64,000 bases of DNA from a bacterium (lineage in GTDB: Bacteria > Cyanobacteriota > Sericytochromatia > S15B-MN24 > VGJW01), in NCBI GenBank assembly GCA_021781555.1, contig JAJXWQ010000007.1, positions 529 to 64,528 of the forward strand, read 5' to 3'. Positions 3,559-27,782 of the stretch are shown piece by piece. Position 1 is the first letter of the stretch. The number at the start of each line of letters is the position of its first letter. The position numbers were made by a program, and so were the translations under genes. The notes beneath the pieces are model-generated. The model saw only the letters and a list, made by a program, of their open reading frames with translations, had not been told where the DNA came from and did not search any database.

Positions 3559-3592
3559 ACGAGCCTCGGAAGCACGGGAGCGAACAGCAACA

Positions 3593-10525: not shown

Positions 10526-12154
10526 ATGGACGCGGCCGGAGAACGAAACGCGATTCGTTCACTCAGGATATTTTCGGATGTCGCCGCTTCGATCGCGCTG
10601 ATCTGTGGCGGCCTCGAGATCGCCGCCTGGATCCTGGACCTCCGGGGCCTCGAAGCCTCGGCCATGGCGCCCCTGGCGCAGGGCCCCGAGGCCGCCACAG
10701 GCCTGCTCCTCGTGGGAGCCGCCCTCATCGTGGCGGGCAGGAACTTCCCGGGCGCCCGGATCGCCTGGCAGCTTTTGGCACTGATGGCGATGACCTTCGG
10801 CACCGCGCTGTCCGTCCGCGGGCTCGGAAGGATCGACGTCGGGCTGGGGCACTTGTTCTCTCCCCATGCGGCCGCCGCGAACTTCACCTCGGCCCGGATG
10901 GCCCTGCCCACGGCCCTGGTGATCACGCTCCTCGGACTGGCCCTGCTGCTCAAGGGCCGGTCGCTGAGCCGAGCGGGGGACGCCCTGGGCACCATGGCCT
11001 TCCTGTTCCTTTACTTCGGGTTCCTCCACCAGGTCCTCAGGATCGAGTTCATGCGGGTGGAACCGCCGTTCAGGCAGGTGCCGCAGGCCTGGCTCCTCTG
11101 GATGCTGCTGAGCCTGGGGGTCACGGCGGTCCGATCGTCGCAATGGCTGGTCGACACCGCCCTGGGGCGAACGCTGACTGGCCTGATGGGGCGCCGCTTC
11201 CTGGCCGCCGTCCTCGTCACCCCGGCACTGTTGGGTTTGCTGTGGATCGTGGCGGTCAGGGCCAACGGCGTGACGCCGATCGAGCGGCTCATGACGGTCG
11301 CCCTCGGCTTCACCGCGCTCATCGTCGGCGTGATCGCCCTTGATGCCCGCCGCCTCGAACAGATCGAGACCGAGCGCGGTCGAGCCGAGGAAGCCTTGGC
11401 CATGAGCCAGGCCGAACTCAAGAAGGCAGCCGAGCTGGCCCAGCTCAAGGATTCCTTCCTCTCGACGGTATCCCACGAGATGCGCACTCCACTCTCGCTC
11501 ATCATGGGCTACGCCGAGCTTCTCGAGGACGTCTATCCCGGCGAAGAGCTCATCGCCGGGATTCAAGAAGGCACCCGAAGGCTCGCCGAGCACATCGAGC
11601 GGATCGTCGAGTACTCCGCCTTGCTCGGCGGTACCTTGCCCCTCTACCAGACGCCAGTAGACATGGCCGAACTGGCCCGCAACGTCGCCGAGGTCGAGCG
11701 GGCGCGGTTCAAGGGCAAGGATCTGACACTCACCGTCGAGGTGAGCGTCAAAACCCCCATCGTGCAGGGAGACTCGCGCCGGCTGACCGAGGTGCTCAAG
11801 GAGCTCCTCGACAACGCGATCAAGGTCACACCGCCCGGGCGCAAGGCCGGGATCCGGGTCGGACCCGAGGGCGACAAGCTGCGAATCGACGTCTGGGACA
11901 GCGGGCCCGGGATCGGCGAGTCCGAGATCGCGCGTCTCTGGGAGGCCTTCGGGCAGCTCGAGGCGGGAGATTCCGCCCGGCGCGGCGGCCTGGGGCTCGG
12001 GCTCCCGATCTCCAGAAAGCTGATCGAACTCCACGGCGGCACGCTCGCCGTGGCGAGCCAGCCCGGCGAGGGGAGCACGTTCACGGTGCTGCTGCCGGCC
12101 TTCGGAACCGAGACTACGGACGCCGGTCCGGAACTCCCGGGTTCGCCTACGTGA
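10526..12154 (+). CDS. membrane sensor histidine kinase
   Basis: Several TM helices, HisKA H-box (SHEMRTPLSLIMGYAELL) and HATPase_c G-boxes (DSGPGIGE, GLGLGLPISRKL). Confidence 0.85.
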   Translation: MDAAGERNAIRSLRIFSDVAASIALICGGLEIAAWILDLRGLEASAMAPLAQGPEAATGLLLVGAALIVAGRNFPGARIAWQLLALMAMTFGTALSVRGLGRIDVGLGHLFSPHAAAANFTSARMALPTALVITLLGLALLLKGRSLSRAGDALGTMAFLFLYFGFLHQVLRIEFMRVEPPFRQVPQAWLLWMLLSLGVTAVRSSQWLVDTALGRTLTGLMGRRFLAAVLVTPALLGLLWIVAVRANGVTPIERLMTVALGFTALIVGVIALDARRLEQIETERGRAEEALAMSQAELKKAAELAQLKDSFLSTVSHEMRTPLSLIMGYAELLEDVYPGEELIAGIQEGTRRLAEHIERIVEYSALLGGTLPLYQTPVDMAELARNVAEVERARFKGKDLTLTVEVSVKTPIVQGDSRRLTEVLKELLDNAIKVTPPGRKAGIRVGPEGDKLRIDVWDSGPGIGESEIARLWEAFGQLEAGDSARRGGLGLGLPISRKLIELHGGTLAVASQPGEGSTFTVLLPAFGTETTDAGPELPGSPT

Positions 12155-13484
12155 ACATGGCCGCAGCGCTCGTCGTCGACCCGAGCATCCGCAACTGGCG
12201 GACGGTCTCGTCGAAGGGCGTGTTGTCCCGGACGTCCTGCTTGAGATAGCCCTTGATCTGGTCCCACATCGAGATGGCACGGTCAAAGGCGGGGTTGCTC
12301 CCCCTGACGTAAGCCCCGACGTTGAGCAGATCCTGGACCTCCTTGTAATCGGCGATCATCTGGAAGACGGCCTGGCGTGCCTGCTTGTGTTCCTTGGTAG
12401 CCAGGATATCCAGCAGACGGGAAACGCTCTGTAGCACGTCGATCGCCGGGAAGATGCCCTGCGCCGCGATCGATCGCAGCATGACGATGTGGCCGTCGAG
12501 GATGCCGCGGACGGTGTCGGCGATCGGCTCGTCCATGTCGCCGCCATCGACCAGCACCGTGTAGATCCCGGTGATCGAACCTTTGTCACTGGTACCCGCC
12601 CGCTCGAGGAGCTTGGGGATGAGCGAGAAAACCGACGGCGTGTACCCCTTCTGCGCGGGCGGTTCGCCGATCGCCAGGCCGATCTCGCGCATCGCCATCG
12701 CAAAACGCGTCATCGAGTCCATCATCAAGAAGACCTTGTTGCCCTGATCGCGGAAGTACTCGGCGATGGAGGTAGCTACCAGCGGCGCCTTGAACCGCAT
12801 CAAGCTGGAGGTATCGCTCGTCGCAACCACCACGACCGAACGTCTCAAGCCTTCCTCGCCCAGGGAGTACTCGAGAAATTCCCGGACCTCGCGCCCGCGC
12901 TCTCCGACCAGGCAGAGCACGGATAGATCCGCCTTGGCCTGGCGGGCGATCTGGCCGAGCAAGGTGCTCTTGCCCACTCCCGATCCGGCGAAGATCCCGA
13001 TACGCTGGCCCTCGCCCAGGGTCAAAAAGCCGTCCATCACGCGCACGCCGGTCGGGAGAACCGTGTCGATGAGCCGCCGTGTCATCGAGTTGGGGGGAGC
13101 GTTCATCTGCGGCGTCGTCGTCTCGTACAGGAGCGGACCCTTGCCGTCGATGGGGTTGCCGAGACCGTCCAGCACGCGGCCGAGGAGCTTGGGCCCGACC
13201 TTGACGCTGACCATCCGCCCGGTCGCCACGACCTCGCAGCCCGCCCCGATGCCCTCCATCTCGGAAAGAGGCATCAGCATGACGCGCCGCGGCTTGAAGC
13301 CGACGACCTCGCACGGAAAGACCAGCTTGCGATCCTGCGAGTAGATGTGGCAAAGCTCTCCGTAACGCACGCCTTGCAACTGCGCCTCGATGACCAGGCC
13401 CACGAGCTGCACGACGATTCCCCGGGCTCGCACCGGCTCGGTATCCCGCAACGCGAGGGCGTAGGGCTCGAGAGAGATGTTCAC
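12147..13484 (-). CDS. fliI: FliI/YscN-family type III secretion ATPase
   Basis: Walker A GSGVGKST and a T3SS-ATPase N-domain. GTG start with AAGAGG upstream. Stop overlaps the convergent HK stop (CTACGTGA). Confidence 0.9.
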   Translation of the reverse strand: MNISLEPYALALRDTEPVRARGIVVQLVGLVIEAQLQGVRYGELCHIYSQDRKLVFPCEVVGFKPRRVMLMPLSEMEGIGAGCEVVATGRMVSVKVGPKLLGRVLDGLGNPIDGKGPLLYETTTPQMNAPPNSMTRRLIDTVLPTGVRVMDGFLTLGEGQRIGIFAGSGVGKSTLLGQIARQAKADLSVLCLVGERGREVREFLEYSLGEEGLRRSVVVVATSDTSSLMRFKAPLVATSIAEYFRDQGNKVFLMMDSMTRFAMAMREIGLAIGEPPAQKGYTPSVFSLIPKLLERAGTSDKGSITGIYTVLVDGGDMDEPIADTVRGILDGHIVMLRSIAAQGIFPAIDVLQSVSRLLDILATKEHKQARQAVFQMIADYKEVQDLLNVGAYVRGSNPAFDRAISMWDQIKGYLKQDVRDNTPFDETVRQLRMLGSTTSAAAMFT

Positions 13485-13514
13485 GGAAGCAAGCCTCTTG
13501 ACGTCGGCACCCGG

Positions 13515-14900
13515 CTACTGGTTGAGGTCCTCGAAGGCCTGCGACTCGGCATCGTCGACCTCGGAGAGCTCCCGCTGCACGTTCTGGAAGACCTCCTGCA
13601 AGACCGAGAGCTGGGTCTTGATGGTCGCATCCACCGTGCCCGATCCGGTCTCGATGAAGACGCCGCCCCGCTGGATCTTGTTGGACGCCTGGAACTCGAG
13701 ATGCTTGACCTGAGCCAGCATGTCCCGGAATCGATCCTCCTGGGCCTGAACCTGGGGCAGATCCTCGGTATTGACCCGCACCACGACGCGCTCCAGGTCC
13801 GTGACCCGGGTCAGCGCCTCGTCGAGGACCGACAGCACGATCTCGGGCTTGGCCGAGATCTCGTCGCAGACGATCTTTTCGGCCACGCTCATGGCGAGCT
13901 GGATGAGTTTCCTCGAGTTCTCCCGCGCTGCCTGTGGATAAGCTAGCCGAGCGCGATTGAGGGTCTCGATCGCCTCTTCGATGATCTTGGCGCCTTCCTC
14001 GTCGGCCTGCGCCCGGCCCTCGGTGTAGCCAGCCGCTCGGGCCGCCTCCACCATCTGTTCGTAGCGCTCGGACCGGGAGCGCTCGAAGTCCTCGAAGGCC
14101 TGGGCGATCTGGTTCTGCGCATCGGCCCGGGCCTCGGCTGCCGCGATCTGGGCCTCGCCGACGATCCGCTCCGCCTCGAGACGAGCCTCGGCGAGCAGCC
14201 GCTCGCGTTCGGCCAGCAGCCGCTTGCCGGCATTCTCCTTGAGCTCGAAGCCGTCGAGCAGCGCGGCGATCTGCTCCTCGGCGCTGGCGAGCTCGCGCCA
14301 ACGCGCCCGCGAGGCGGCCCGCGCCGCCTCGAACTCGGCCGCCGCCGCCGCCTGCTGCTCCAGAGTCGGCACCAGCGCATCGACCGCACTGCCGAGCTGC
14401 TGGGGATCCGCGCCGAGAGCCTCGGACAGACGTTGGGTCGCAGCCTCGAGCAGAGCCGAGAAGGTACCCTCGGGATCGGGGGCCTGATTGGCGGCCTCCT
14501 CGGCTCCGGCCTGGGCAGCGGCTTCGGCGGCGGTCAGGATCTCCTGCCTGGCGCCCTCGAACCCCGCCAACCAATCCCCATCCGCCTCGAGGGCCGCGTC
14601 GAGTCCGGCCGCGGCTCCCCCCGGCGCCGGCTCTGCAACGCCAGCCCCGGCGCTCGCTACGGGATCGACGGGACGAGCCGGGGCCTCGGGTCCTGGCGAC
14701 TCCGGCTGCAGCGGCACGATGTCGAGGTCCGATTCGGCCATCGGCACGACCCGCTCGGCCCTGCGCAGCCCGCTCTCGGGGGCGTCGACTCGCCGGCGCA
14801 CACGGCCCGGACGGCCTTCGCCCTCGTCGGCGATAACCTGGTCGCCGGCGACCACGACCGACCCGCCCTGGTCGACCTTGCTACCCTTTATCAGCGCCAC
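13515..14900 (-). CDS. fliH: FliH/YscL-family ATPase regulator with a ~200-aa Ala/Glu/Pro-rich N-terminal extension
   Basis: C-terminal 260 aa match FliH (coiled coil, then ...RGGVFIETGSGTVDATIKTQL). 30-bp gap to fliI. Annotated start is a GTG without a clear SD. Start uncertain. Confidence 0.65.
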   Translation of the reverse strand: MALIKGSKVDQGGSVVVAGDQVIADEGEGRPGRVRRRVDAPESGLRRAERVVPMAESDLDIVPLQPESPGPEAPARPVDPVASAGAGVAEPAPGGAAAGLDAALEADGDWLAGFEGARQEILTAAEAAAQAGAEEAANQAPDPEGTFSALLEAATQRLSEALGADPQQLGSAVDALVPTLEQQAAAAAEFEAARAASRARWRELASAEEQIAALLDGFELKENAGKRLLAERERLLAEARLEAERIVGEAQIAAAEARADAQNQIAQAFEDFERSRSERYEQMVEAARAAGYTEGRAQADEEGAKIIEEAIETLNRARLAYPQAARENSRKLIQLAMSVAEKIVCDEISAKPEIVLSVLDEALTRVTDLERVVVRVNTEDLPQVQAQEDRFRDMLAQVKHLEFQASNKIQRGGVFIETGSGTVDATIKTQLSVLQEVFQNVQRELSEVDDAESQAFEDLNQ

Positions 14901-15354: not shown

Positions 15355-17253
15355 TCAGTCCAGGCCCACCGAGTAGCCGAAGTTCACGCTGGCGTTGAAG
15401 GGGAAGAGCGTCATCGTGGACGTCAGCGACCAGGAGAGGCAAGCGGCGCGGTAGGTCAGCCGCAGCGTGGCATCGTTGAAGTTTAGCCGGAGGGCGCCCT
15501 GCGGACGGTAGAAGTTGGCGCCCACGTCGGTGTACCAGTGGCGAGTCCACGCGTAAGAGGCGCTGCCGAAGACCCGATCCCCGCTTGGCGCCTGATCGAA
15601 GTAGAACGGCGAGCGGCCCAGCAGCTGGTCGGTCTCCGCCCCGAAATCCGTGGACCATCGTGCCGCCCAGCGCTGTATGTTGTTGAGCCCGACGACGCCG
15701 CTCACCTGGTACGCGGGCTTCCACGACCTCGCGCCCAAAGCTGGCGGCTCCAGGTATTCCGTCGCCGTACCCCAGGCGTAACCGTCGGTCTCCCAGAAGG
15801 GCTCGGGTCGCCAGGCGGGGGCCGCCACTGCGACGTGAACGGATCCAGCAACGGCACTGGCATGCGGCGGCTCGTCGAACGGCAACCACTCGAGCTGCGG
15901 CAAGGGCGAGAGTTCCTGGAAGTAGCCCACCCGCGCCGTCGGGTTGATCATCAAGGGCCCAAGGCCCAGATTACCGAGATTGAGGTCCAGATCGCCCAGT
16001 CGGTTGACGTTCTGGCCGTTGATATCCGATCGGTAGCCGGCGCCGAGCGAAAGACTCCTGCCGCCTGCCAGAGCCAGCAGGGCGCCACCATTGGCGCGCG
16101 GGCCGTAGGTTCCGCCCTGAAACGGCGTCTGGTAGGTCGCGTCACCCGATAGCGAGATGTTCCCGACCTTGGCGGTCCCCTGGGTGCCGAAGAGGATGCC
16201 CCGCCCCTGCGTGACACGGAAGGGAATCGTGCCCTGGATGTACTTGCCCAGAGCGAAAGCGCCGGCACCGGCCGCGAAGGCCCCCTCGTACGGGTCGTAC
16301 CCGGCCTGGGCACCGAGGGTGTGCGACCCGCGCCGATGGGAGATCTGGTCCTTGAGGCTCGTATTGATCTCGGGAATCGAAGCCAGGGTCCAGCCCGAGA
16401 CGTGCAGGGCCACGTCGTGGGCTTCAAAGATCTGCCGATCGCCGAACGGGTGCCACTTCAGCTTCTTGCTGGAAAGGAAGTATCCGGGGTCGTCAGCCAT
16501 GCACGGACTGAAAACCGTGTTCCGGGCCAAAGCATAGGAAGGCGAGAGATACAGGAAGCTGCCGCTGGCGCGCCCGCGGTGGGCCGCTCGGCCCGACCAG
16601 TGCCAGGCCTGGGCCTCCTGGTGGAGGAGGTCGAAATCGAAGCGGTCGGCGCGGAGGCGGTAACCTTTGATCGTGAACCGCACGTGGTTGTCCGCGTGGC
16701 CCCGCCGGGCCGCCGCATCGAAGTAGAGCCGCCCGGCCGACAGGGAGTAGGATCCGTACCACGCCTGCACGTGGCCCGTGGCGATGAGGATGGACGCATC
16801 GGTTCTTGCCTCGATATGGTCGGCCCAGATCACCAGGGTCTGGCCTCCCGGCTCGTTCACGGTCACCGAGGCCGAGGCTTTTCCGGGCCGGGCGGGTGAG
16901 GACTCCGCCTGTGCCGGTCCGAACTCGTCGGGCAGCAGCGTCGGCGGCAAATAGGGATTGGGCGAGGGGCCGACCTGGGGTTCGGGCAGGGCATCGGGAT
17001 CCGGCAGCGCCGGCCCGGCGAGAGGATCCCCGATGCCCATAGGGGCGAGGACCGGGCTCTCGAAACAGCACGCCGCGGGAGCGAGCGCAGGAGACGGCGA
17101 GGGCGACGGCGAAGGCAAGGGGGACGGCGAGGGCGAGGGAAAAGGCTCGGCCGAAGCCAGTAGATCGGGGATCGGGTTGCCCAGATGATCGCCCGTGATG
17201 GGCAGGTAAGCGGCGGCAAGATGGATCGCCGCGGCGCAAAGCAGGGCGATCAT
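15355..17253 (-). CDS. OstA-domain (LptD-like) outer-membrane beta-barrel protein with an (SP)n linker
   Basis: Signal peptide, SPSPSPLPSPSPSPSP linker, OstA-like N-domain (TLVIWADHIEARTDASILIATGHVQAWYGSYSLSAGRLYFD) and a Gly/aromatic-rich C-terminal half consistent with a beta-barrel. Start overlaps the DUF58 stop (ATGA). Confidence 0.5.
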   Translation of the reverse strand: MIALLCAAAIHLAAAYLPITGDHLGNPIPDLLASAEPFPSPSPSPLPSPSPSPSPALAPAACCFESPVLAPMGIGDPLAGPALPDPDALPEPQVGPSPNPYLPPTLLPDEFGPAQAESSPARPGKASASVTVNEPGGQTLVIWADHIEARTDASILIATGHVQAWYGSYSLSAGRLYFDAAARRGHADNHVRFTIKGYRLRADRFDFDLLHQEAQAWHWSGRAAHRGRASGSFLYLSPSYALARNTVFSPCMADDPGYFLSSKKLKWHPFGDRQIFEAHDVALHVSGWTLASIPEINTSLKDQISHRRGSHTLGAQAGYDPYEGAFAAGAGAFALGKYIQGTIPFRVTQGRGILFGTQGTAKVGNISLSGDATYQTPFQGGTYGPRANGGALLALAGGRSLSLGAGYRSDINGQNVNRLGDLDLNLGNLGLGPLMINPTARVGYFQELSPLPQLEWLPFDEPPHASAVAGSVHVAVAAPAWRPEPFWETDGYAWGTATEYLEPPALGARSWKPAYQVSGVVGLNNIQRWAARWSTDFGAETDQLLGRSPFYFDQAPSGDRVFGSASYAWTRHWYTDVGANFYRPQGALRLNFNDATLRLTYRAACLSWSLTSTMTLFPFNASVNFGYSVGLD

Positions 17254-18395
17254 CGCACTTCGGGCCGGTGGGCCCGGAGCCTGCGCTTGCCCCTGCGCTT
17301 GAAGAAGGCGAAAACCGGACGCCAGAAGGACTCGCCCGTCCGCAGCTCGATCTCGTCGATCCCCATGGCGGCAAAGGCCTGCTGACGCGTGCGGCGGCGG
17401 GTCTCGGCGATCTGGCGGTAGCGTTGCTGCACGTCGGGATCCGAGGTGTCGACGACGGCGCTGACACCCGTCTCGGGGTCCATGAAACTAACCCGTCCCA
17501 GCGCAGGCAAGACCTCCTCCATGCGATCCGTCAGCGTCACCGCGATCACGTCGTGCCGCGCCAGTCGCCGGAGCGATTCGAGATCGGCCGCCAGGAAGTC
17601 CGAGCAGACGAAGATCGTGGCAGGCCGGCGCACCAGGCGCGCCAGCGCGATCACGGCACCCTGGAACGCAGCCGGGAAGGGTCCGGTTGCCGCGGACGTG
17701 CCGACCTCCAGGTCGAGGGCTCCCACGGTCGGGCTCGTGGGTCCGACGTCGAGGAGATCGTGGACCAGGCGCAGGACATGTGCGCGCCCTTTGCGCGGCG
17801 GGACGAAACGGACGGTCTTCGAACCGAACAGGAAAAGCCCGACGCGATCGTGGTTGGCCATGGCCGAAAGCGCGATGGCCATCGCGAAGCGACCGGCGAG
17901 ATCCCGCTTGAGCTCGGTGCCGGCCGTCGCAAAATCCAGGCTGCGCGAGCCATCCACGGCGAGGATGACGGTCAGCTCGCGCTCCTCGACGAATTTCTTG
18001 ACGAAGAGCCGATCCATCCGCGCCGTCACGTTCCAGTCGATCGTGCGCGGATCATCGCCCTCTTGATACTCCCGGACCTCGTCGAAGATCATCCCCCGTC
18101 CCTTGAACACACTCTGGTATTCTCCGGCCAGGATGCTGCGAACCAGGCGATCGCTCTGGATCTCGAGCCGGCGGATCTTCCTGGCCATCCGGCTCGTCGC
18201 CTCGGGGACCGGAGCGGGCCTCGCGATCGCCCGACGCCAGCGGTTCCATCCGAGCACCAGGAAGCCCGTGGATGGCCACGGGATGCGCAGCGGCCGAAAC
18301 GACCTCCCGGTCGCTGCCAGGCGCTCCCGGGGCGATCGCCTGAAACCGTCTCGATGGCCCGAAGAGGGCCCGCGCTTGAGCGAACGGCCAGACAA
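17250..18395 (-). CDS. DUF58 protein (MoxR partner, vWA-like fold)
   Basis: Conserved DUF58 core (YQEGDDPRTIDWNVTARMDRLFVKKF...ILAVDGSRSL). Start lies 3 nt after the MoxR stop. Confidence 0.75.
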   Translation of the reverse strand: MSGRSLKRGPSSGHRDGFRRSPRERLAATGRSFRPLRIPWPSTGFLVLGWNRWRRAIARPAPVPEATSRMARKIRRLEIQSDRLVRSILAGEYQSVFKGRGMIFDEVREYQEGDDPRTIDWNVTARMDRLFVKKFVEERELTVILAVDGSRSLDFATAGTELKRDLAGRFAMAIALSAMANHDRVGLFLFGSKTVRFVPPRKGRAHVLRLVHDLLDVGPTSPTVGALDLEVGTSAATGPFPAAFQGAVIALARLVRRPATIFVCSDFLAADLESLRRLARHDVIAVTLTDRMEEVLPALGRVSFMDPETGVSAVVDTSDPDVQQRYRQIAETRRRTRQQAFAAMGIDEIELRTGESFWRPVFAFFKRRGKRRLRAHRPEVR

Positions 18396-18397
18396 GC

Positions 18398-19387
18398 CTA
18401 CGGCACCCGTAGTGACAGCAAACGCCTCACCACGAAATCCACGGACACCTCCTCGGCCTCGGCCTCGTACGTCAGCAGGACGCGGTGCCGCAAGACGTCC
18501 AGGGCGATGGCCTTGACGTCGTCAGGGAGCACGTACGCTCGCTTGCGCAAGAAGGCATGGGCCTTGGCGGCCTGGATGAGGTAGATGCTCGCCCGCGGCG
18601 AGGCCCCGTACGCGATGAGGGGGGCAAGATCCTCCATGCCGGCTTCCTTGGGCTGCCGCGTCGCGGCAACAAGATCCACCACGTAGCGCTTGATCTTGTC
18701 TGATACCAGGATGTCGGCCGCGAGGTTACGGGCCTCGAGAACCAGCTCCAGGGTACCGAGCTTGGCGAGCTGCACCTCCCGACGCACCGTCATACGATCG
18801 AGGATCTCGAGCTCCTCGCTCTTGCTGGGATAGGTCACCTTGACCTTGAACATGAAGCGATCGAGCTGGGCTTCGGGCAAAGAGTAGACCCCTTCGTTAT
18901 CCATGGGGTTCATCGTGGCCATCACCAGGAAGGGCTCGGGCAAGGCGAGGGTCTCGCCGCCGATGGTGACCTGCCGCTCCTGCATGGCCTCGAGGAGAGC
19001 GCTCTGGACCTTTGCCGGGGCACGGTTGACCTCGTCCGCCAGGACCAAATTGCCGAAGATCGGCCCCCTCTTGGTCTGGAAACGGCCCTTCTTCGCATCG
19101 AAGATGGAGGTGCCGAGGATGTCTGCCGGCAAGAGGTCGGGGGTGAACTGGATGCGGCTGAACTCGGCCTGCAGCACCTGGGCCAAGGTGCTGATCGAGA
19201 GGGTCTTGGCCAGGCCCGGGACGCCCTCGAGCAGGATATGGCCGTCCGCCAGCAAACCGATGAGCAGGCGATCGATCAGCGCCCCCTGGCCGACGATCAC
19301 GCGCTTGATCTCGGCGGTGATCTGACCGAAGCGCTCGGCAGCGGCCCGCACGCGTTCATTGGCCTCGAGGATGGTGTTGTCGATCAC
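18398..19387 (-). CDS. MoxR-family AAA+ ATPase
   Basis: Walker A GVPGLAKT, Walker B LLADEVNRA and the MoxR-specific C-terminus. Confidence 0.9.
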   Translation of the reverse strand: MIDNTILEANERVRAAAERFGQITAEIKRVIVGQGALIDRLLIGLLADGHILLEGVPGLAKTLSISTLAQVLQAEFSRIQFTPDLLPADILGTSIFDAKKGRFQTKRGPIFGNLVLADEVNRAPAKVQSALLEAMQERQVTIGGETLALPEPFLVMATMNPMDNEGVYSLPEAQLDRFMFKVKVTYPSKSEELEILDRMTVRREVQLAKLGTLELVLEARNLAADILVSDKIKRYVVDLVAATRQPKEAGMEDLAPLIAYGASPRASIYLIQAAKAHAFLRKRAYVLPDDVKAIALDVLRHRVLLTYEAEAEEVSVDFVVRRLLSLRVP

Positions 19388-19766: not shown

Positions 19767-20567
19767 GTGCGGGTGCTCGACATCCTGAAGCCCGCGCTCC
19801 AAAACCTCCACGCCATGGCGACTGGTGCCATCGCCGCCCTGCCTCAGGTCCTGCTGGGTCTGCTGGTTTTCGGGATCTCCCTGCGGATCGCGCGCTGGGG
19901 TCGCCAGTGGACGCACCGGGCGATAGGACAGGCAGGCAAGCGCGAGGACGCCGCCCTGGTCGTAGGGCAGCTCGCCTACGGCGCGCTGATCGTCGGAGGG
20001 ACGGCCGCTGCCGCCGCCGTCATGGGCGTTGGCCTCGGCAGCGTCCTGGCAGGCATCGGCGTGTCGGGCATGGTCGTCGGGTTCGCCTTCAAGGACATTC
20101 TCGAGAATTATCTCGCCGGCATCCTGTTGATGCTGGCCCGGCCCTTCGTTACCGGTGACGACATCAAGACGGGCGACTACGAAGGCCGGGTTCTGGCAGT
20201 ATCCACGCGCAGCACGACCATCGATACCGGAGACGGTCAGCTGGTGGTCATCCCCAACGCCAGGATCTACTCGCAGGCCCTGATCAACCTCTCGGCACTT
20301 GGAATCCGCAGATCCATCCTGCCCCTCCACGTCGAGATCAGCCAGGATCTCGATGCGACGCGCAGTGCGATCGAGGCCATCGCGGGAGCGAACCCCCTGG
20401 TCCTTCACGATCCGGGTCCCGAGCTCCTGGCGACCGCCCTGGATGCCACCGGGGTCAATGTCGAACTGCGCTTCTGGTCCCGGGCGCAGGACGCCCAGGC
20501 CGCCAGGGGCCAGCTCGTGGAGGCGATCCGCCGGCAGCTCTTCGCGCCGGTCACGCCGCCGCGCTGA
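19767..20567 (+). CDS. MscS-family mechanosensitive channel
   Basis: GTG start. TM helices followed by the MscS beta domain (GDYEGRVLAVSTRSTTIDTGDGQLVVIPNARI). Confidence 0.8.
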   Translation: MRVLDILKPALQNLHAMATGAIAALPQVLLGLLVFGISLRIARWGRQWTHRAIGQAGKREDAALVVGQLAYGALIVGGTAAAAAVMGVGLGSVLAGIGVSGMVVGFAFKDILENYLAGILLMLARPFVTGDDIKTGDYEGRVLAVSTRSTTIDTGDGQLVVIPNARIYSQALINLSALGIRRSILPLHVEISQDLDATRSAIEAIAGANPLVLHDPGPELLATALDATGVNVELRFWSRAQDAQAARGQLVEAIRRQLFAPVTPPR

Positions 20568-20648
20568 GCGGCACGCCCCCCGGCCGGCCCGTAGCTTTTG
20601 CAGCGGGAACGAGTTCCTCTGCGCTGCGCAACCGGGACCCGTTTGGCA

Positions 20649-21419
20649 TCAGGACGGCAACAGCCGTTTGACCATTCCGTGCAGCGCCTCGTACTGCCTC
20701 AGCCCATCCTCGAGATGCTGCATGGCCCGGTCGGGTCGGAAGGCCTGGTTGGCCGAGAACAGCGGATCCGTCGCTGGATAACCGCCCTCGGTCCGACGCA
20801 TGCTGTAGACGTAGCGGCCGTGGTGCACGAGATGCAGATCGAAATCGCAATAGGTCTCGATCCCGCGGGACCTTGCCCGCTCCCCGAACGCCCAATCCTC
20901 CCCGAGGTGGATGGGCGTGCCCTCCGAGTCCTTGATGAGAATCGGGTTGAAAAATCCCATGTAAGTCTTCAAGAACTCGATGTAACGAAGGGACTCATCG
21001 GCGATATTCTCGAAAACCTCGCGCCGGATCAGCAAGAAACCGGTCGGCAGGTACCGAACCTTGGCCAGTCCGCGGGCCAGTGGCGGCTGATCCTTCTCGG
21101 CTGCGACAAGAAGCTCGAGGGGGAACATCTTGCGTGGATATGTCGCCCCGACGATCGCTTTGTCATGGCGATACAGACGATCGACGCCATCCGGCGGGAA
21201 AGAGAGGTCCGAATCGATCATCATGAGGCTGTCGCAGTCCGACTCTGCAAACAACGCCGCGAGCTTGTTCCGGGCTCGCGAAATCAGCGACTCCCCGGTC
21301 AAGATCTGCACGTCGAAGCGATGCCCCCCCGGATTCCGGCTCAGCATCGCGACGAGGCTCTCCACCGCAGGTACGTGGAAGCCCCCCCCGACGGGCAGAC
21401 CCAGCATGATCCTGGCCAT
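20649..21419 (-). CDS. GT-A fold (family-2-like) glycosyltransferase, paralog A (DxD intact: DSD)
   Basis: ISRARN...MIDSDLSF and GEDWAFGERARSRG motifs. Confidence 0.55.
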   Translation of the reverse strand: MARIMLGLPVGGGFHVPAVESLVAMLSRNPGGHRFDVQILTGESLISRARNKLAALFAESDCDSLMMIDSDLSFPPDGVDRLYRHDKAIVGATYPRKMFPLELLVAAEKDQPPLARGLAKVRYLPTGFLLIRREVFENIADESLRYIEFLKTYMGFFNPILIKDSEGTPIHLGEDWAFGERARSRGIETYCDFDLHLVHHGRYVYSMRRTEGGYPATDPLFSANQAFRPDRAMQHLEDGLRQYEALHGMVKRLLPS

Positions 21420-21421
21420 CG

Positions 21422-22258
21422 TCAGCGCACCCTCCGTTCGAGGTACTCCGCCATCGACCTGGCCGCGGCCTCCTTGAGGCTGACCTCGAGCATCTCCAGT
21501 TGATCCACGAAGGCGGCTACCGGAGGCGGAAGCTCGACGCCAGGGGGCCGCAGCGCGGCGGAGGGAAGCGCCATCAGTCGCTCGACGACCGGAAAGTACT
21601 CGTGGATCGGCACGGCGCCATCGGCAAGCGGATCCACCTGGTAGGCATACGACCCCGCGCGACCGATCGCCAGGTCGAAGTCGCAGGATACGGACAGGCC
21701 GCGATCGCGAGCCCGCTGACAGAAAGCCCGATCCTCACCGAGATGAACGGCCACGCCGTCCGTCACCACGACGGGGTCGAAGAAACCGGCGATCCGGCGC
21801 CCGAAATCCTCGCGGATGATCGCACTGCCGGCCATCGCCTCCAGGGCTTCACGACGGATCAGGATGAAACCAGCTGGAGCGAACTCGACCTGCAGCAGGC
21901 CCGCGAGCGTAGCTGGAGCATCGCCGGAAAGCCGCAGTCCCCTCTCGAAGGCATCCTCCCACGTGGGATAAGGCCCCACGACGATGGGGACCTCGTGCGC
22001 CAGGAGGCGATCGATCGCATCCGGATCGAAGGTCAACCCCGACTCGAGGATCATCAAGCCGGCGGCATCGGACCTGAGCAAGGCGTCGGCGAGAAAGTCG
22101 CGAGCCCGGCCCGGCGAAAGCCCGGGTGGGATCCGCTCGATCTCGAACTCATGTTTACCGGGATTGGCCTGGATGGCGGCGAGCAGGCTCGCCACCGTGC
22201 CGGGAAAGAGCGTGGCGTCCCCGCCGGACGCAAGAAGACCCAACAAGATTCGTGCCAC
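21422..22258 (-). CDS. GT-A fold glycosyltransferase paralog B (DxD replaced by ESG)
   Basis: Collinear with paralog A (GEDRAFCQRARDRG retained) but the DxD position reads LMILESGLTF. 3-bp gap to paralog A. Confidence 0.55.
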   Translation of the reverse strand: MARILLGLLASGGDATLFPGTVASLLAAIQANPGKHEFEIERIPPGLSPGRARDFLADALLRSDAAGLMILESGLTFDPDAIDRLLAHEVPIVVGPYPTWEDAFERGLRLSGDAPATLAGLLQVEFAPAGFILIRREALEAMAGSAIIREDFGRRIAGFFDPVVVTDGVAVHLGEDRAFCQRARDRGLSVSCDFDLAIGRAGSYAYQVDPLADGAVPIHEYFPVVERLMALPSAALRPPGVELPPPVAAFVDQLEMLEVSLKEAAARSMAEYLERRVR

Positions 22259-22423
22259 GCCCCATGCTATACCTGTTTCGCTCCGAACGGGCCCCTGTGC
22301 GCGTCCGCCTCGCCGCGCCAGCGGGCCCGCGCGATGAAGGCCGCGGCGACGAAGCGCTGCGGCCTTTGCGGTGATTCGGGAGCTTTCCCGAAAGGTGGAC
22401 CGATCGCTCGGACCGGTCGAAAC

Positions 22424-22648
22424 CTACTCCTTGTGGAAGGAGCGGACCGCCTGCGAGACGTCGTCCATCAACTTCTTGAGCATGTCGAGACGAGTCTCCA
22501 TGTCGAGCATGTAGGCCTGGAATTCATCCGGCGTGTAGCCGCCACTGCCGACGTTCGCGGCCTTGGTCTGGATGTCCTTCAGCAGGTTCTGCACACCCTG
22601 GGAGATGGTCTCCATCGTGCTTACGCCTTGGACATGAATCGAACCCAT
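22424..22648 (-). CDS. small helical hypothetical protein (74 aa)
   Basis: ATG preceded by AAAGGAAAGAACG. Helical, acidic. Sits between the regulator and the GT pair. Confidence 0.4.
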   Translation of the reverse strand: MGSIHVQGVSTMETISQGVQNLLKDIQTKAANVGSGGYTPDEFQAYMLDMETRLDMLKKLMDDVSQAVRSFHKE

Positions 22649-22696
22649 CGTTCTTTCCTTTCTTGACTGAACGCTCCCGACCCACCGCGGTCGCAC

Positions 22697-22811
22697 GTTC
22701 TCAACCTTCTGACACCGAACTTATCCACCAGGGAGGGGAGGTCTTGCAGGACTTAACCTAGAATAAAAGCTCCTCCGCAATGATTTAACTGCATCTCGAC
22801 AGCTAGCCAAC
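22697..22811 (-). promoter_or_regulatory. AT-rich intergenic segment (probable promoter of the small-protein/GT genes)
   Basis: Sharp local GC drop (..ctagaataaaagctcctccgcaatgatttaactgcatctcg..) in an otherwise GC-rich region. Confidence 0.3.
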
Positions 22812-25800
22812 TCACTTAAGCGACCCTCTAAGGATCTGCAGATGCAGCTCGATCGTCTCGGAATCCGGGCCGATGCCTATCTCCTGCTTCATGATACGCT
22901 CGACGAGCTTGAAGTGTTTGAGTGCGTCCTCCCGACGCCCCATCCGGCCCAGTGCCCGCATCTTGGCGCGATGCGCCTCCTGGGCGGTGCGATCGAGCTG
23001 GATCTGGCGATCGGCGAGGTCCAGGACGGCACCGTGCTGCCCGGCCGCTTCGAGCGCCTGGGAGAGCTCGAGGAAGACCCAGCTGGCGTCCCGCCGGAAC
23101 CGCTCCCGCTCGGCCTCCACCCAGGGTTCCTCGAACTCGACCAGGAACGGTCCGCCGTACAGATCCAGCGCCTGCCGCAGGTGGAGCTGACGCTCGGCGC
23201 CTTCGGATTGTCTGGCCTGTCCGACCTGGAAGGAGAAATCTGCGGTGTCGATCCGGTGCCGGAGAGCAAAGTTGAACCGATAGCGTCCGTCCTGGAAGAG
23301 GATGAATCGACTCGAGGCGTTGCGCTCGAGGCCCGGCTCGAGCGCGGCCCGGAGGCGGGCGATCAAGACATGGAGGGCGCTCGCCTTGGTATCGCCCGCA
23401 AAGAAGATCTCCACGAGTTCTTCCTTGCCCGAGCCATGGCGGCTGGTCAACAGATGCGCCAACAGGAGCTTGGCCTTGGCCGCACGCCAGGCGCTCTGAG
23501 CGACCTGCTTGCCGTCGACCTTGACGCGCATGCGCCCAAACAGCGAGCCCTCCAGGGCCAGGTCCGGAGCGCGAGCGGCGGCGATCCGGCCATCCTCGGA
23601 AGTCTCCAGCCAGCTGAACTGGTACTGGCGGGCCAGTTTGCGAGCGCTTTCCGCGGCTTCGCGGGCTCGCTCCGCCTTGCCCTGAGCGGACAGCAGGCGG
23701 GCCTGCAGGAAGCGTGCGCGGGTGAGGTCATAGCGAAGATCACGCCGATCGAGAACCGGAATGAGCTCGCCCAGCGCGGCGTCTGCGCCCTCGAGCGCCC
23801 CCTCCGACAGCGCGACGGCGATCTCCGCCAGGCTCTCGGCGGGTGGCGTGTCGGACAGGCGCCTGCCCCCCGCTGCAGCTGCCGCCCCCACGGCGCCGCC
23901 GGCCAGAGAGCTCGTCTGCGAGCGGCGGCGATCGCCCTCGTGATGCACGCGGAGGGATTGCCGGAAGCTGCGGGCCTCGTCGAGAAAGCCCCGCGCCTCC
24001 GCGGAATGCGCCTGGGCCAGGGCGAGCTCGGCGCGATCGATCTGGGCCATGGAGAAAAGAACCGGATCCGCGAGCTGGCCGGCCAGGGCCGCCGCCTCCG
24101 CCAGGAGCGTCTGGGCTTGCTGGAACTGGCCGGTGATACGGCCGATATGCCCGAGCGCTGCCAGCGCCTCGGTCTCGGCCAGGCCATCGCCGACCTGGCG
24201 AGCCTCGGCAACCGCCTGCTCGGCCAGTTCCCAGGCCGCGGTGGTCTCGCCGCGAGTCGCGCGGACCCTGGCCGCAGCGGCCCCCGCCTCCGCAGGGGGT
24301 ATGCGCCCGGCTCCACGCGCGGCCGCCCGGGCCTCGTCGAGGGCTGCCAGAGCCCGTTCGAACTGACCTCCCGTGGCCAGAACCCGGCCGAGGTGCGTAC
24401 TTACCCGCGCCAGCCCACCGGCATCGCCCACGCGCCGATACAGGCTCGCGGACTCGCCAAGGTACGTCGCGGCGGGGCCGAGATCGCCCTCGCGCAGATG
24501 ATGCAGGCCCAGCTGATCGTAGGCGAAGGCCTTGAGGCCGAGATCGTCCGCAGGAGCCATGTCGAGAGCCGCCTGCGCGGCCATTGCCCCCTTGCCCGCG
24601 GCCGCAGACAATGCGAGGGCCCACACGGCCGATCGCGCGTCCCCCACGGCCTTGGCGAGGATGCCGGCCCGGTCATAGCAGGCCTGCGCCTCGGCCATCT
24701 TCCCTGCGTGGCGGGCGATCTCTCCCTCGAGCAGCGCGACCCGGCAGGATCCCTCGCGCCACGAACCGGGGATCCGATCGAGCCAGCGCTGGACGCCCGC
24801 ACTGCGGCCCTGCCCGAGCATTCCGTCGGCCAGCTGGACGATCCGGGCCTCCGCCTCCGCCCAGGCGCCCGCCGCCAGCCAGTGGTCGACGGCGGCTTCG
24901 GGATCGTCCTTGACGATCGCCGACGCCACTCCCAGATGGAAGGCGCGCAAGCGCTCCGCTGGCCACGTACGAGCTGCGGCATCCTGGAGAGCGGCCTTGA
25001 ACAGCGGATGGAAGACATAGCCGTCCGGCCCCTTGGACAGCAAGAACCCCTGGGCGGCCAGGGCGTCGAGCTGCCCCAGGGCCTCGGGTGCCGTGAGCAA
25101 GGGAATGAGCGCCGCGGCCCCCCCGGGCAGGAGCGCGCAGGCCAGCAGGTCCTCCCTGGCATCGGCAGGAAGGTCATAGAGCACCTGATGGCTGATGTAC
25201 TCGTGGAGCGGCTCGTCGGCGTGGAGTGCGGCAACGTCCGCTCGCGCCCCCATGGAGACACCGGCGGGCCAGCCTGCGGTACGCTCGTGCAGCGCCGTGC
25301 CGATCGCCGGATCTCCGCCAGCCAACCGGACCAGACCGGCGGTCTGGTCCACCGAAAACCGCAACTGCTCGGGGCCGATCTCGAGGTCGGCCACCAGGTC
25401 GGGCCGGCCTCGGGCCGAGATCCACAACCGGCCGGGCCAGTACTCGACCAGGCGCTCGACCACCTCGGACGGCAAAACATCCGCTCCGTCGAGCACGACC
25501 AGAAGGTTCGCGCACAGCTCCGCGACCTCCTCGGTGAGCCGCGCCAGGACGGGCTCGGCGGCGAACTCTGGATCGGCGGAGGCGAGTTGCTCACCAGGCA
25601 GGGCCGAGAGGGACGGCAGCGCCTGTTCCACGCCGGCGACCAGGTGCGAGAGGAAAACGAAGGGAGAGGAGTCGGCGGACTCCAGCGACAACCAGACGCC
25701 TGCCGGCCCGCCCCGAAGCCCTGCAGCTGAAACCGATCGGGCAAACGCGTCGGCCAGCAGCAGGCTCTTGCCGTAGCCGGGCCCGCCCCACACCGTCGCG

Positions 25801-25916
25801 ATCCGAGCGTTCTCCAGCGCACCGACGGCGTCTTCCCGCCGCAGGTACGCCGCCGGGAGAGCCGGCGGCACGAACTTGCGCGAGAGGATCGGGACCAGGG
25901 CCACGCCCGATTTCAT
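22812..25916 (-). CDS. large STAND/AAA ATPase - TPR - C-terminal OmpR-type wHTH + BTAD (SARP-like) transcriptional regulator
   Basis: Walker A VWGGPGYGKSLL near the N-terminus, a long TPR-like helical middle and a C-terminal trans_reg_C-like segment (LLAHLLTSRHG...LHVLIARLRAAL...RYRFNF) followed by BTAD. Confidence 0.75.
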   Translation of the reverse strand: MKSGVALVPILSRKFVPPALPAAYLRREDAVGALENARIATVWGGPGYGKSLLLADAFARSVSAAGLRGGPAGVWLSLESADSSPFVFLSHLVAGVEQALPSLSALPGEQLASADPEFAAEPVLARLTEEVAELCANLLVVLDGADVLPSEVVERLVEYWPGRLWISARGRPDLVADLEIGPEQLRFSVDQTAGLVRLAGGDPAIGTALHERTAGWPAGVSMGARADVAALHADEPLHEYISHQVLYDLPADAREDLLACALLPGGAAALIPLLTAPEALGQLDALAAQGFLLSKGPDGYVFHPLFKAALQDAAARTWPAERLRAFHLGVASAIVKDDPEAAVDHWLAAGAWAEAEARIVQLADGMLGQGRSAGVQRWLDRIPGSWREGSCRVALLEGEIARHAGKMAEAQACYDRAGILAKAVGDARSAVWALALSAAAGKGAMAAQAALDMAPADDLGLKAFAYDQLGLHHLREGDLGPAATYLGESASLYRRVGDAGGLARVSTHLGRVLATGGQFERALAALDEARAAARGAGRIPPAEAGAAAARVRATRGETTAAWELAEQAVAEARQVGDGLAETEALAALGHIGRITGQFQQAQTLLAEAAALAGQLADPVLFSMAQIDRAELALAQAHSAEARGFLDEARSFRQSLRVHHEGDRRRSQTSSLAGGAVGAAAAAGGRRLSDTPPAESLAEIAVALSEGALEGADAALGELIPVLDRRDLRYDLTRARFLQARLLSAQGKAERAREAAESARKLARQYQFSWLETSEDGRIAAARAPDLALEGSLFGRMRVKVDGKQVAQSAWRAAKAKLLLAHLLTSRHGSGKEELVEIFFAGDTKASALHVLIARLRAALEPGLERNASSRFILFQDGRYRFNFALRHRIDTADFSFQVGQARQSEGAERQLHLRQALDLYGGPFLVEFEEPWVEAERERFRRDASWVFLELSQALEAAGQHGAVLDLADRQIQLDRTAQEAHRAKMRALGRMGRREDALKHFKLVERIMKQEIGIGPDSETIELHLQILRGSLK

Positions 25917-26246
25917 ACCCGGCGAAGAGCCTTTACTTCCTCTTAACAGCTTTTGAAAGCCCGATCATCCATCTATAGCGTGTGAGGTCGAGGAGCGCAG
26001 GCGGTTCAGCCGGCACCCTGAACCACCTGCGACCGACACCTCCTTCAACACGGTAAGAAACCAGCCGCGGGGCCAGCCGGCACCCTGACCCCGCGGCCGG
26101 TCCTCTTCCCGAAGACCCACCGGACGTAAAGTTTCCAGCGACCAGGTCCTGCTCTGTCGGCACCCAGAGAAGAGCCTGGCAACTGGGTGAGGGACCGAAC
26201 CGCGGCTTGGCCGGCACCCCAAGCCGAGGCTCGGAACCAGCAGAAG

Positions 26247-26272
26247 GGCCCCGGAGCGCAAACTCCGGGGCC
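26247..26272 (-). terminator. perfect 10-bp stem hairpin downstream of gltX
   Basis: ggccccggag cgcaaa ctccggggcc followed by ttgttg on the + strand and cuucug on the - strand. Lies between the gltX stop (26328) and the regulator start. Confidence 0.45.
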
Positions 26273-26327
26273 TTGTTGCACGGCAAAGCGACCGGCCCCC
26301 CCCCGCGGCGGGTCGGCGCGACGGCTC

Positions 26328-27782
26328 CTACGTCCGGGCGGGATCGGCCAGCGCCAGGATCGCCTCATCGAGCCGCGCCAGCGCTCGCTCCCGGCCCAGC
26401 CACTGCACCACCTCGAACATACCCGGCGAGACCGTAGAACCGGTGAGCGCCACGCGGACCGGCTGGATGACCGCCCCGAGCTTCACCCCGAACTCTGTCG
26501 CCAGCTGCCGGAATTGCGCCTCGATGGCATCGTGGCTCCAGTCTTCGAGCGCTCCGATGCGCACGGAGAGCGCAACCAGGATCGGCCGCTGGGCATCCGT
26601 GAGGAACTTGGCCCGGGCCTCGCCGTCCCACACGAGCGGGACGTCGAAATAAAAGCGCGCCTTGTCGGCCAGCTCGACCAGGGTGCGTGCCCGTTCGACC
26701 AGCGTGGACGCGATCCCTTCGAGTCGCTCCCCTGATTCGTCTGGACCGATCCAGCCCCGCTCCTCCCAGAGGGGGCGCACTCGCCGTGCCATCTCGGCGG
26801 GTCCGAGCCGGCGGATCCACTCCCCGTTCAGCCATTCGAGCTTGGCATAGTCGAAAACGCACGCGCTCTTGCCCACGCCGTCGAGGTCGAAAGCAGCCAC
26901 CAGCTCCTGGCGGCCAAAGATCTCCTCGTCGCCGTGAGCCCAACCCAGGCGGGCGATGTAGTTGACGAGAGCCTCGGGCAGGTAGCCGTCCGCGCGGAAT
27001 TGCTGGATGGAAACGGCCCCGTGGCGCTTGGACAGACGCTTCTTGTCGGGACCGAGGATCATGGGGATGTGTCCGAAGCGGGGAAGGCCAAGTCCGAGCG
27101 CCTCGTAGAGCAGGACCTGCTTGGGCGTGTTCGAGAGGTGATCGTCCCCGCGGATCACATGCGTGATGCCCATGGCCGCATCGTCGACGACGCATGCGAA
27201 GTTGTATGTCGGCACCCCATCGGCCTTGAGAATGATGAAATCGCCGATCTCCTTCCGCTCGAACCTGACCGAGCCGTGGATCAGGTCCTCGAGGTCGATC
27301 TCCCCGTCCTTCGGCGTGGCGAAGCGGATGGCATGGGGGCCCCCGGCCACCCGACGCTGGCGCTCGGCCGGGTCCAGCTCGGCGCAGCGGCAGTCGGTCC
27401 GGGCCGGTGTCTCGGGCTCGAGATCCTCGGTCGCCTCGACCTCGGCTCGCGGCGGGCAGAAGCACGGGTAGGCACGGCCGCTTGCAAGCAAGCGGTCCGC
27501 GGACTCGTGGTAGCTATCGAGGCGTTCCATCTGGTAATACGGGCCGTGAGGCCCCTCGATCCCCGGCCCTTCGTCCCACTCGAGCCCCAGCCAGGTCATC
27601 GCGTCGAGGATCGCATCGGTGTATGCCTGTGTGGACCGCTGGCGATCGGTGTCCTCGATGCGCAAGAGAAAGGCACCGCCGTGATGGCGCGCCAGGAGCC
27701 AGTTGAAGAGGGCGGTCCGGGCCCCGCCTACGTGCAAGAAACCGGTGGGAGAGGGCGCAAAGCGCAGGCGTACGGCGTTCAT
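26328..27782 (-). CDS. gltX: glutamate--tRNA ligase
   Basis: MNAVRLRFAPSPTGFLHVGGARTALFNWL (HIGH) and KLSKR (KMSKS). ORF trimmed to the ATG at 27782. Confidence 0.9.
   Translation of the reverse strand: MNAVRLRFAPSPTGFLHVGGARTALFNWLLARHHGGAFLLRIEDTDRQRSTQAYTDAILDAMTWLGLEWDEGPGIEGPHGPYYQMERLDSYHESADRLLASGRAYPCFCPPRAEVEATEDLEPETPARTDCRCAELDPAERQRRVAGGPHAIRFATPKDGEIDLEDLIHGSVRFERKEIGDFIILKADGVPTYNFACVVDDAAMGITHVIRGDDHLSNTPKQVLLYEALGLGLPRFGHIPMILGPDKKRLSKRHGAVSIQQFRADGYLPEALVNYIARLGWAHGDEEIFGRQELVAAFDLDGVGKSACVFDYAKLEWLNGEWIRRLGPAEMARRVRPLWEERGWIGPDESGERLEGIASTLVERARTLVELADKARFYFDVPLVWDGEARAKFLTDAQRPILVALSVRIGALEDWSHDAIEAQFRQLATEFGVKLGAVIQPVRVALTGSTVSPGMFEVVQWLGRERALARLDEAILALADPART

Follow-up and report, generated by a model that had tools for sequence, protein, structure and literature searches.

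Within a 64,000-nucleotide stretch of a bacterial contig (JAJXWQ010000007.1; the whole stretch is referred to here as the window), we analyzed a group of four minus-strand genes at positions 20649-25916, two of which encode paralogous proteins that we call A and B. The genes for B and A, transcribed in this order, are best explained as a two-gene unit that would specify a catalytic glycosyltransferase (GT) of the GT-A fold and a pseudo-catalytic partner of the same fold, with the other two genes, which encode a large regulator and a small protein of 74 amino acids, standing separate from this unit. We put the probability of this overall reading at roughly 60%. An initial annotation of this DNA had considered the four genes to be one regulated glycosylation module built around a catalytic and a pseudo-catalytic GT. 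The elements that it described were all found on the minus strand at the positions it had given, as judged from the list of open reading frames (ORFs) and a scan of the guanine-plus-cytosine (GC) content. Of its interpretation, the pair of GT-A paralogs was upheld and the four-gene module was left unsupported. The four genes point in the same direction, and their codon-position GC values are typical of genuine genes. In the sense of transcription, the gene for the 1034-residue regulator is followed by a spacer, the gene for the 74-residue protein, and then the genes for B and A. The GC content of the window is about 67%, and the host is a relative of the metagenome-assembled genome (MAG) "Cyanobacteria bacterium REEB65", an unclassified member of the Cyanobacteriota that contributes locus L005 to our comparisons.

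A and B share 40% identity over 210 residues (E=4e-47), a similarity far beyond what chance would produce. With the family alignment as input, AlphaFold2 gave models that were confident over the core of both proteins, with predicted local distance difference test (pLDDT) values of 78.4 for A and 77.5 for B. When these models were compared with the PDB using Foldseek, all matches with a probability of 1.00 were GT-A enzymes, for A and B alike. The top match of A was A197 of the Sulfolobus turreted icosahedral virus (STIV; 2c0n, E=2.9e-8), followed by COLGALT1, LH3, GalNAc-transferases, TarP, GlfT2 and SpsA. For B, the matches included LH3, COLGALT1, A197 and Mnn9, the first three with E-values of about 1e-8 to 1e-7, and A197 ranked fourth among the matches of this protein. 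Among the viral models in BFVD, the best matches were proteins of uncultured Caudovirales with template modelling (TM) scores of about 0.7, some of which are labelled as GT-A type. The models and their matches to solved enzymes place both paralogs in the GT-A superfamily, and the concern, formulated beforehand, that both might prove to have non-GT folds does not hold.

Sequence profiles pointed in the same direction. The family profile recovered the A197 sequence with an E-value of 1.4e-5, the DxD motif of A197 being aligned with D69-x-D71 of A, and A197 (PDB 2C0N) is the only solved structure that was recovered in this way. The viral profile phrog_1574, which is annotated as "unknown function", matched A with an E-value of 4.6e-21 over residues 4-205 and B with an E-value of 1.4e-8, and by these profile matches both proteins belong to an A197-like/phrog_1574 family. 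The more specific suggestion that the paralogs could be assigned to family GT2 was not borne out: there was no match to Glycos_transf_2 at E<=1, and no Pfam or NCBIfam model reached its threshold for A or B. The only Pfam models to appear were Glyco_transf_21 (E=0.12 and 0.18) and Anp1 (E=0.3), all far under the cut-off. A similarity to Anp1 (GT62) recurs below threshold in relatives, the best score being 25.8 against 28.8 bits. Transmembrane segments were found in neither A nor B, and both are soluble proteins.

As defined by Taujale et al. (PMC7185993), GT-A enzymes have as their core motifs the DxD, the G-loop, the C-His, which is a metal ligand, and the xED, which in inverting enzymes supplies the catalytic base. 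We placed these motifs by alignment position and not from a superposed active site. On this basis A has all of the DxD (D69-S-D71), xED (E174-D175) and C-His (H199) residues, a set that fits a metal-dependent GT-A glycosyltransferase. The conserved Asp of its xED motif would be suggestive, and only suggestive, of an inverting mechanism. B, on the other hand, lacks both the DxD and the C-His: at the site where A reads MMIDSDLSF, B reads MILESGLTF, so that DxD has become ESG, and the C-His is replaced by Arg. The xED motif (as GED) and most of the RAR motif are kept in B, and the protein carries a conserved, B-specific C-terminal helix. The initial annotation had correctly read DSD in A and ESG in B from the sequence; the Arg at the C-His site is a second loss that it did not mention.

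The losses in B are shared by its orthologs. In the set of three B orthologs, which come from one clade and have identities of 86% and 55%, the DxD site reads ESG, ESG and ASG, and the C-His site is Arg in all three. The recurrence of the altered motif in orthologs down to 55% identity shows that the ESG variant is not strain-specific noise. Relative to the nearest relative (locus L001), the ratio of nonsynonymous to synonymous substitution rates (dN/dS) was 0.19 for B and 0.09 for A, and the identity to the respective REEB65 ortholog was 55% for B and 71% for A. Judged by these values, B is clearly under purifying selection despite evolving faster than A. The stop codon of B and the start codon of A are separated by 2 nucleotides.

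The loss of DxD is rare in the family as a whole. The combination of DxD, ED and His is retained in 256 of 279 aligned domain instances, and the rest are mostly fragments, plus three minor variants of xED or C-His. Among full-length domains, DxD is lost only in the B orthologs and in two fused proteins, P0031 and P0036, where the second of the two domains is affected. At the three sites, this domain of P0031 has DGM, AD and R, and its SLIxRARN motif and the Glu of its xED are gone as well; in P0036 the second domain reads NSN and the other motifs are missing. Since B is nearer to A (40%) than to these degenerate domains, degeneration must have arisen independently at least twice in the family. 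A further fusion, P0027, joins two intact domains, and together with the recurrence of two-domain fusions this suggests that the working unit is dimeric. The gene for P0031 is located at 8001-9587 of L091, a 244-kb contig resembling a giant virus that also carries genes for a RING finger protein, a dNK, a ricin lectin and an Asp/Arg hydroxylase.

Taken together, the motif loss that recurs across B orthologs, the purifying selection, the 2-nucleotide gap and the rarity of DxD loss in the family make the interpretation of A and B as a putative catalytic and pseudo-catalytic GT-A pair well supported. B shows the genetic features of a pseudo-partner of the COSMC type, in that it is a paralog, its motif loss is fixed in three orthologs, and it is kept under purifying selection. 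Such a role is likely for B, and the proposal of the initial annotation that B is a non-catalytic or altered partner of A was the right reading.

The alternative that has to be weighed most directly at this point is that B is an active, metal-independent GT-A enzyme of altered specificity, in which the conserved Arg takes over from the metal in neutralising the donor diphosphate, and that A and B add two different sugars in succession. B keeps the xED and most of the RAR motif, and the Arg at the C-His site is invariant in its orthologs. There are metal-independent GT-A families, GT14 and prokaryotic GT6 among them, that have lost DxD and rely on basic side chains (PMC7185993). Several intact paralogs are also arrayed elsewhere in the family, as in an uncultured Ignavibacteriae MAG (L012, 4808-8681) in which four tandem copies all have DxD, ED and His. 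However, the first position of the DxD site varies among the B orthologs (E, E and A), and B changes at about double the rate of A, as seen in the identities to REEB65 and the dN/dS values given above. Moreover, the same change of His to Arg is found in the second domain of P0031 along with the loss of SLIxRARN and of the xED Glu, so that this domain looks degenerate rather than re-tooled. On balance, we regard an active B as unlikely.

If A and B are a catalytic and pseudo-catalytic pair, the DxD and C-His of A would bind the metal and the nucleotide-sugar, and the Asp of its xED motif would act as the catalytic base. B would then be a non-catalytic partner of A that could serve as a scaffold, a stabiliser or an acceptor-binding subunit, and the two proteins may act as a heterodimer, in the manner of COSMC with T-synthase or of the GT1 and GT2 domains in COLGALT1. 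COSMC/T-synthase (GT31) is a system in which a GT-A paralog that has lost its catalytic function is kept to support the catalytic partner (PMC7185993), and in COLGALT1 (GT25) a non-catalytic GT1 domain stands beside the catalytic GT2 domain (PMC12003778). Both A and B also have COLGALT1 and LH3 among their best structural matches. There are nevertheless differences: COSMC/T-synthase and COLGALT1 are eukaryotic systems of the secretory pathway, unlike A/B; the xED motif, which B keeps, is lost along with DxD in COSMC; and the GT1 domain of COLGALT1 still binds metal and uridine diphosphate galactose. Indirect hints of a physical association between A and B come from the 2-nucleotide gap between their genes and from the fused two-domain relatives.

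A bacterial parallel is provided by GtfA/GtfB, the O-linked N-acetylglucosamine transferase of streptococcal serine-rich adhesins, in which a cytoplasmic catalytic GT and a paralogous, non-catalytic partner with a GT fold are encoded by adjacent genes. GtfA/GtfB has a GT-B fold (GT4) and is tied to the accessory Sec system and a large serine-rich substrate. Neither the accessory Sec system nor the serine-rich substrate nor the GT-B fold is a feature of the locus analyzed here.

The closest comparison by sequence profile remains A197, which has been described as a minimal, soluble GT-A protein that carries a DxD motif and has an Asp as its catalytic base (PMC4187194). A197 and A/B share membership of a family rich in viral proteins, but their sequences are only 14-19% identical. 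A197 is a protein of about 200 residues from an archaeal virus with a capsid protein as its proposed target, whereas A/B are chromosomal and bacterial, form a pair of one catalytic and one degenerate protein, and have C-terminal extensions. The glycosylation of the STIV capsid protein by A197 has itself only been proposed (PMC4187194, PMC10551542).

Concerning the acceptor of A/B, for which the initial annotation had named a surface protein or polysaccharide as examples, a survey of annotated ORFs that reached to about 62 kb of the window found no genes for a flippase, a polymerase, a transporter or exporter, or sugar-nucleotide synthesis. The lack of such genes makes a cytoplasmic protein or small molecule a likelier acceptor than a polysaccharide, and we would expect the reaction to take place in the cytoplasm.

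Several points weigh against the interpretation of A and B as a catalytic and pseudo-catalytic pair that is separate from its neighbours. A197 itself is only a putative, uncharacterised glycosyltransferase (PMC4187194). The xED motif is kept in B, and the conserved Arg at its C-His site could stand in for the metal; as metal-independent GT-A enzymes with basic side chains exist (PMC7185993), B might be active. The B orthologs are only three and belong to one clade, so the evidence from conservation is shallow. Lastly, in REEB65 the small gene has members of the GT family on both sides, which hints at a real link between them.

The family to which A and B belong is large and mostly viral, and STIV A197 is its only solved member. 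An exhaustive hidden Markov model (HMM) search gave 26,013 cluster representatives at E<=1e-3, of which 3,916 were found at E<=1e-30, the clusters being defined at 50% identity. In a word-indexed search, B had only 3 homologs. Family members occur in phages of Synechococcus, Sinorhizobium, Caulobacter and Pelagibacter, on a 294-kb contig resembling a jumbo phage and on the 244-kb contig resembling a giant virus mentioned above, and also in many bacterial genomes. Elsewhere in the family, the domain is fused to GT4, Mannosyl_trans3, PIG-L deacetylase and methyltransferase domains, and these fusions support a role of the family in glycosylation. Clustering of the genes around family members over 79 genomic loci revealed no conserved neighbour that recurs across taxa. 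The neighbourhoods are lineage-specific, with PhaB/PhaR in Caballeronia, dnaE/prlC in Neisseria, and an FHA-like protein together with a CHAT protein in Roseomonas, and several of the neighbour clusters are antisense artefacts.

Systems that pair a catalytic with a pseudo-catalytic GT are already known, and both the fold and the motifs seen here are textbook knowledge. What is new is the example in a huge, uncurated and largely viral family, in which degeneration recurs in fused viral proteins. Members of this A197-like family are frequent among cyanophages, pelagiphages, jumbo phages and giant viruses, yet Pfam lacks a model for the family and none of its members is characterised. A and B are a clean bacterial pair of this type, and the independent degeneration in fused viral proteins suggests that the family works as dimers. 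The two proteins therefore offer a tractable, soluble pair for the first biochemistry on the family. In other respects, the locus is an ordinary, uncharacterised glycosyltransferase pair, and its framing as a regulated module fails.

The reasons for setting the regulator and the small gene apart come from comparisons with other loci. The small gene has its own promoter-like region, leader and hairpin, and it occurs without GT ORFs: at nine further small-gene loci, no ORF of the GT family was found near the small gene. The regulator was looked for in L005 and L088-L090 and was absent from all four. In L088, L093 and L094, the gene immediately upstream of the small gene is gltX. The gene order in L094 is a response regulator, unk225, gltX, the small gene and a DUF2225/cNMP gene, followed further along by fliI and fliH. 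This order indicates that in the clade of the window an insertion brought the regulator between gltX and the small gene, and that the GT pair lies at a rearrangement breakpoint on the other side. In REEB65, it is not the regulator but a third member of the GT family, with intact ED and His, that is located upstream of the small gene. The occurrence of the small gene without GT or regulator elsewhere and the third GT in REEB65 mean that the linkage to the regulator rests on adjacency in very close relatives only. By this comparison of gene orders, the adjacency of the regulator and the small gene to the GT pair is recent and clade-specific, and both are probably separate transcription units that are merely neighbours of the pair.

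This conclusion has to be set against a scenario closer to the initial annotation, in which the regulator drives the small gene and the genes for B and A as one regulon, and the 74-residue protein is the acceptor or a third subunit that is glycosylated by A/B in the loop between its helices. In its favour, L001 and L003, the closest relatives, have the four genes in synteny and in one direction, and the REEB65 arrangement with GT family genes on both sides of the small gene would agree with such a link, as would the view that A197 glycosylates a protein, the STIV capsid (PMC4187194, PMC10551542). In the small protein, GGYT(P/V)DE is the loop sequence of the three copies that are linked to GT genes and of no others, the unlinked copies having GGMS/Q(P/A)EE, but the three linked copies represent one clade, so that the correlation counts as a single evolutionary event. 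Read-through from the small gene into the genes for B and A is conceivable, as the hairpin that follows the small gene in the window has no T-run; even so, a probable terminator hairpin stands between the small gene and B. The scenario is further at odds with the loci described above, at which the small gene occurs without GT family ORFs, without the regulator or behind gltX, and with the conservation of the promoter-like region and leader of the small gene irrespective of the gene in front of them. We also found no repeats or binding sites tying the regulator to either promoter. A common regulon with the small protein as acceptor or subunit is thus doubtful in our view. A variant of this idea, in which A/B are a virus-derived GT-A counterpart of GtfA/GtfB and form a cytoplasmic heterodimer that glycosylates the Tyr/Thr-containing loop of the 74-residue protein, seems to us quite improbable. 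If it were true, it would amount to a dedicated protein-glycosylation system in non-photosynthetic relatives of the cyanobacteria and would provide the first defined substrate for the A197-like family with its 26,000 clusters.

The small protein itself is rare. Only 9 relatives (P0176-P0184; see also loci L088-L097) were found among 5.8 billion proteins, with identities of 66-100%. Its gene has a dN/dS of 0.06, which makes it the most constrained of the four, and the C-terminal half of the protein is almost invariant. The protein is restricted to this lineage and is predicted to form a helix-turn-helix hairpin. One relative labelled "Bacilli bacterium" (P0183) has an N-terminal extension that resembles a Sec signal peptide, an ambiguous case in which shorter in-frame starts exist. 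The protein of L092 is identical to the copies of L093 and L094 and its upstream region is unrelated; this is possibly a second genomic copy.

Several known classes were tried for the small protein and rejected. A WXG100 assignment stayed below threshold, with 20.7 against 27.3 bits for the Pfam model and 13 against 44.85 bits for TIGR03930; it was likewise sub-threshold in 7 of the 9 members (best E=1.5e-4), Trp is missing from the turn, which has the sequence GSGGY, and there are no genes of a type VII secretion system among the annotated ORFs of the window. A glycocin precursor was discarded because Cys and a leader are both lacking in the protein, the neighbourhood has neither an ABC nor a C39 peptidase gene, and the small gene usually occurs without any GT. 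The presence of FliH/FliI genes 8 kb away and a Flagellin_N hit with E=0.068 prompted us to consider a needle protein of a type III secretion system (T3SS) or a flagellar protein, but no model of either kind was significant. A match of the small-protein profile to All3316 (7b5h; E=0.17) was also judged not significant.

The AT-rich spacer upstream of the small gene holds the second-lowest 100-nucleotide GC minimum of the window. An alignment of the window with L001, L005 and L088 showed that it carries a conserved promoter-like pattern consisting of GCAAG, about 18 nucleotides, and GATAAG, whereas a scan of the strict sigma-70 consensus found no promoter. A near-invariant block, GAACGTGCGACCGCGGTGGGTCGGGAGCGTTC, lies 20 nucleotides 5' of the ATG of the small gene and is kept in 6 of 10 small-gene loci (the window, L001, L005, L088, L093 and L094), whatever the upstream gene or the flanking sequence. 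With its inverted repeat GAACG...CGTTC the block could be an operator, or it could be a leader RNA hairpin; RNAalifold folded it into a hairpin with no covariation, and Rfam had no match to it. Over 20400-26400, the sole Rfam match at E<=1 was a chance one to an internal ribosome entry site, outside the four-gene region. The hairpin downstream of the small gene is present in the minimum-free-energy fold of the spacer in which it lies. It was not called by the terminator scan, but its equivalent in L005 is followed by a T-run, CTTTTTTATT, and it probably serves as a terminator or attenuator that separates the small gene from the genes for B and A.

The label "STAND-TPR-SARP" that the initial annotation gave to the regulator is a fair one. 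Its N-terminus is a MalT-like STAND NTPase (AAA_22) with the Walker A sequence GGPGYGKS, the middle part contains TPR/TPR_MalT repeats (Pfam TPR_12 and TPR_MalT), and about 250 residues at the C-terminus constitute a SARP module of a winged helix and a BTAD domain (E=5.5e-21 at residues 900-1029). The match to the NCBIfam MalT model is partial (E=1.3e-23), that to the solved MalT structure (PDB 8bob) has an E-value of 8e-10, and positions 24-268 of the AfsR model match residues 783-1031 (E=4.9e-11). The scores of the regulator are far under the equivalog cut-offs (83 against 537 bits and 41 against 1430 bits). The order of an OmpR-type winged helix followed by BTAD is that of the SARP family, but the C-terminal location of the module is atypical. 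Among the MalT/LAL regulators, it has the same layout as MalT, except that the LuxR helix-turn-helix is replaced by the C-terminal SARP module. It has the STAND NTPase, the TPRs and the SARP module in common with large SARPs of the AfsR type, but the SARP module is N-terminal in AfsR and C-terminal in the regulator (NTPase-TPR-SARP). Relative to L001, its dN/dS is 0.14. In L002/L008 (3945-7050; MAG DBS2-1.bin124), which is otherwise 99.97% identical to L001, an indel of one nucleotide splits the regulator ortholog. As the contig has a coverage of 1.25x, an assembly error is a likelier cause of the split in L002 than a true pseudogene.

Features of the four-gene locus, listed in the order of transcription.
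Feature	Position	Strand	Basis or remark
Regulator, 1034 aa	22812-25916	-	ORF and domain profiles
AT-rich spacer, 163 bp	22649-22811	-	GC 52%; promoter-like pattern and leader of the small gene
Leader block of 32 nt, GAACGTGCGACCGCGGTGGGTCGGGAGCGTTC	22669-22700	-	Cross-locus conservation
Small gene, 74 aa	22424-22648	-	ORF; ATG with AAGGAAAG in front
Hairpin 3' of the small-gene stop, AAGGCCGC...GCGGCCTT	22337-22366	-	Conserved in L001
Paralog B, 278 aa	21422-22258	-	A197-like GT-A fold, degenerate DxD
Paralog A, 256 aa	20649-21419	-	A197-like GT-A fold, intact motifs

The surroundings of the four genes are mixed and mainly of a housekeeping nature, with cysS, mini-RNase III, rlmB, gltX, nadC, hemN, hemA and genes for cytochrome c assembly. 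Further genes in the window include fliH/fliI, FapA, a polysaccharide deacetylase/DUF4015 gene, HD-domain and CBS-domain genes, MoxR-DUF58, mscS and two-component genes. Adjoining the GT pair at 15355-19387 (minus strand) there is an apparent operon for a MoxR AAA+ ATPase, a DUF58/vWA protein and a 632-residue protein that has no Pfam match. This MoxR protein also matches the bpMoxR model of MoxR-vWA ternary systems. The PADLOC defence models gave no match for A, B, the small protein or MoxR/DUF58, and a link of the locus to defence systems was dropped on these grounds.

A FliI/T3SS-type ATPase and an unusually long, FliH-like protein of 461 residues are encoded in isolation, with no other flagellar or export-apparatus genes beside them among the annotated ORFs of the window, and the FapA gene is found 6 kb away; the regions concerned are 12147-14900 (minus strand) and 4853-6193 (plus strand). 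The relative L094 likewise has a fliI-fliH pair, with 88% identity for FliI. At 1601-4657 (plus strand), cysS, mini-RNase III and a SpoU/RlmB methylase gene follow one another in this genome of 67% GC, whose nearest named relative is REEB65, an order that we take to resemble the cysS-mrnC-rlmB arrangement of Bacillus.

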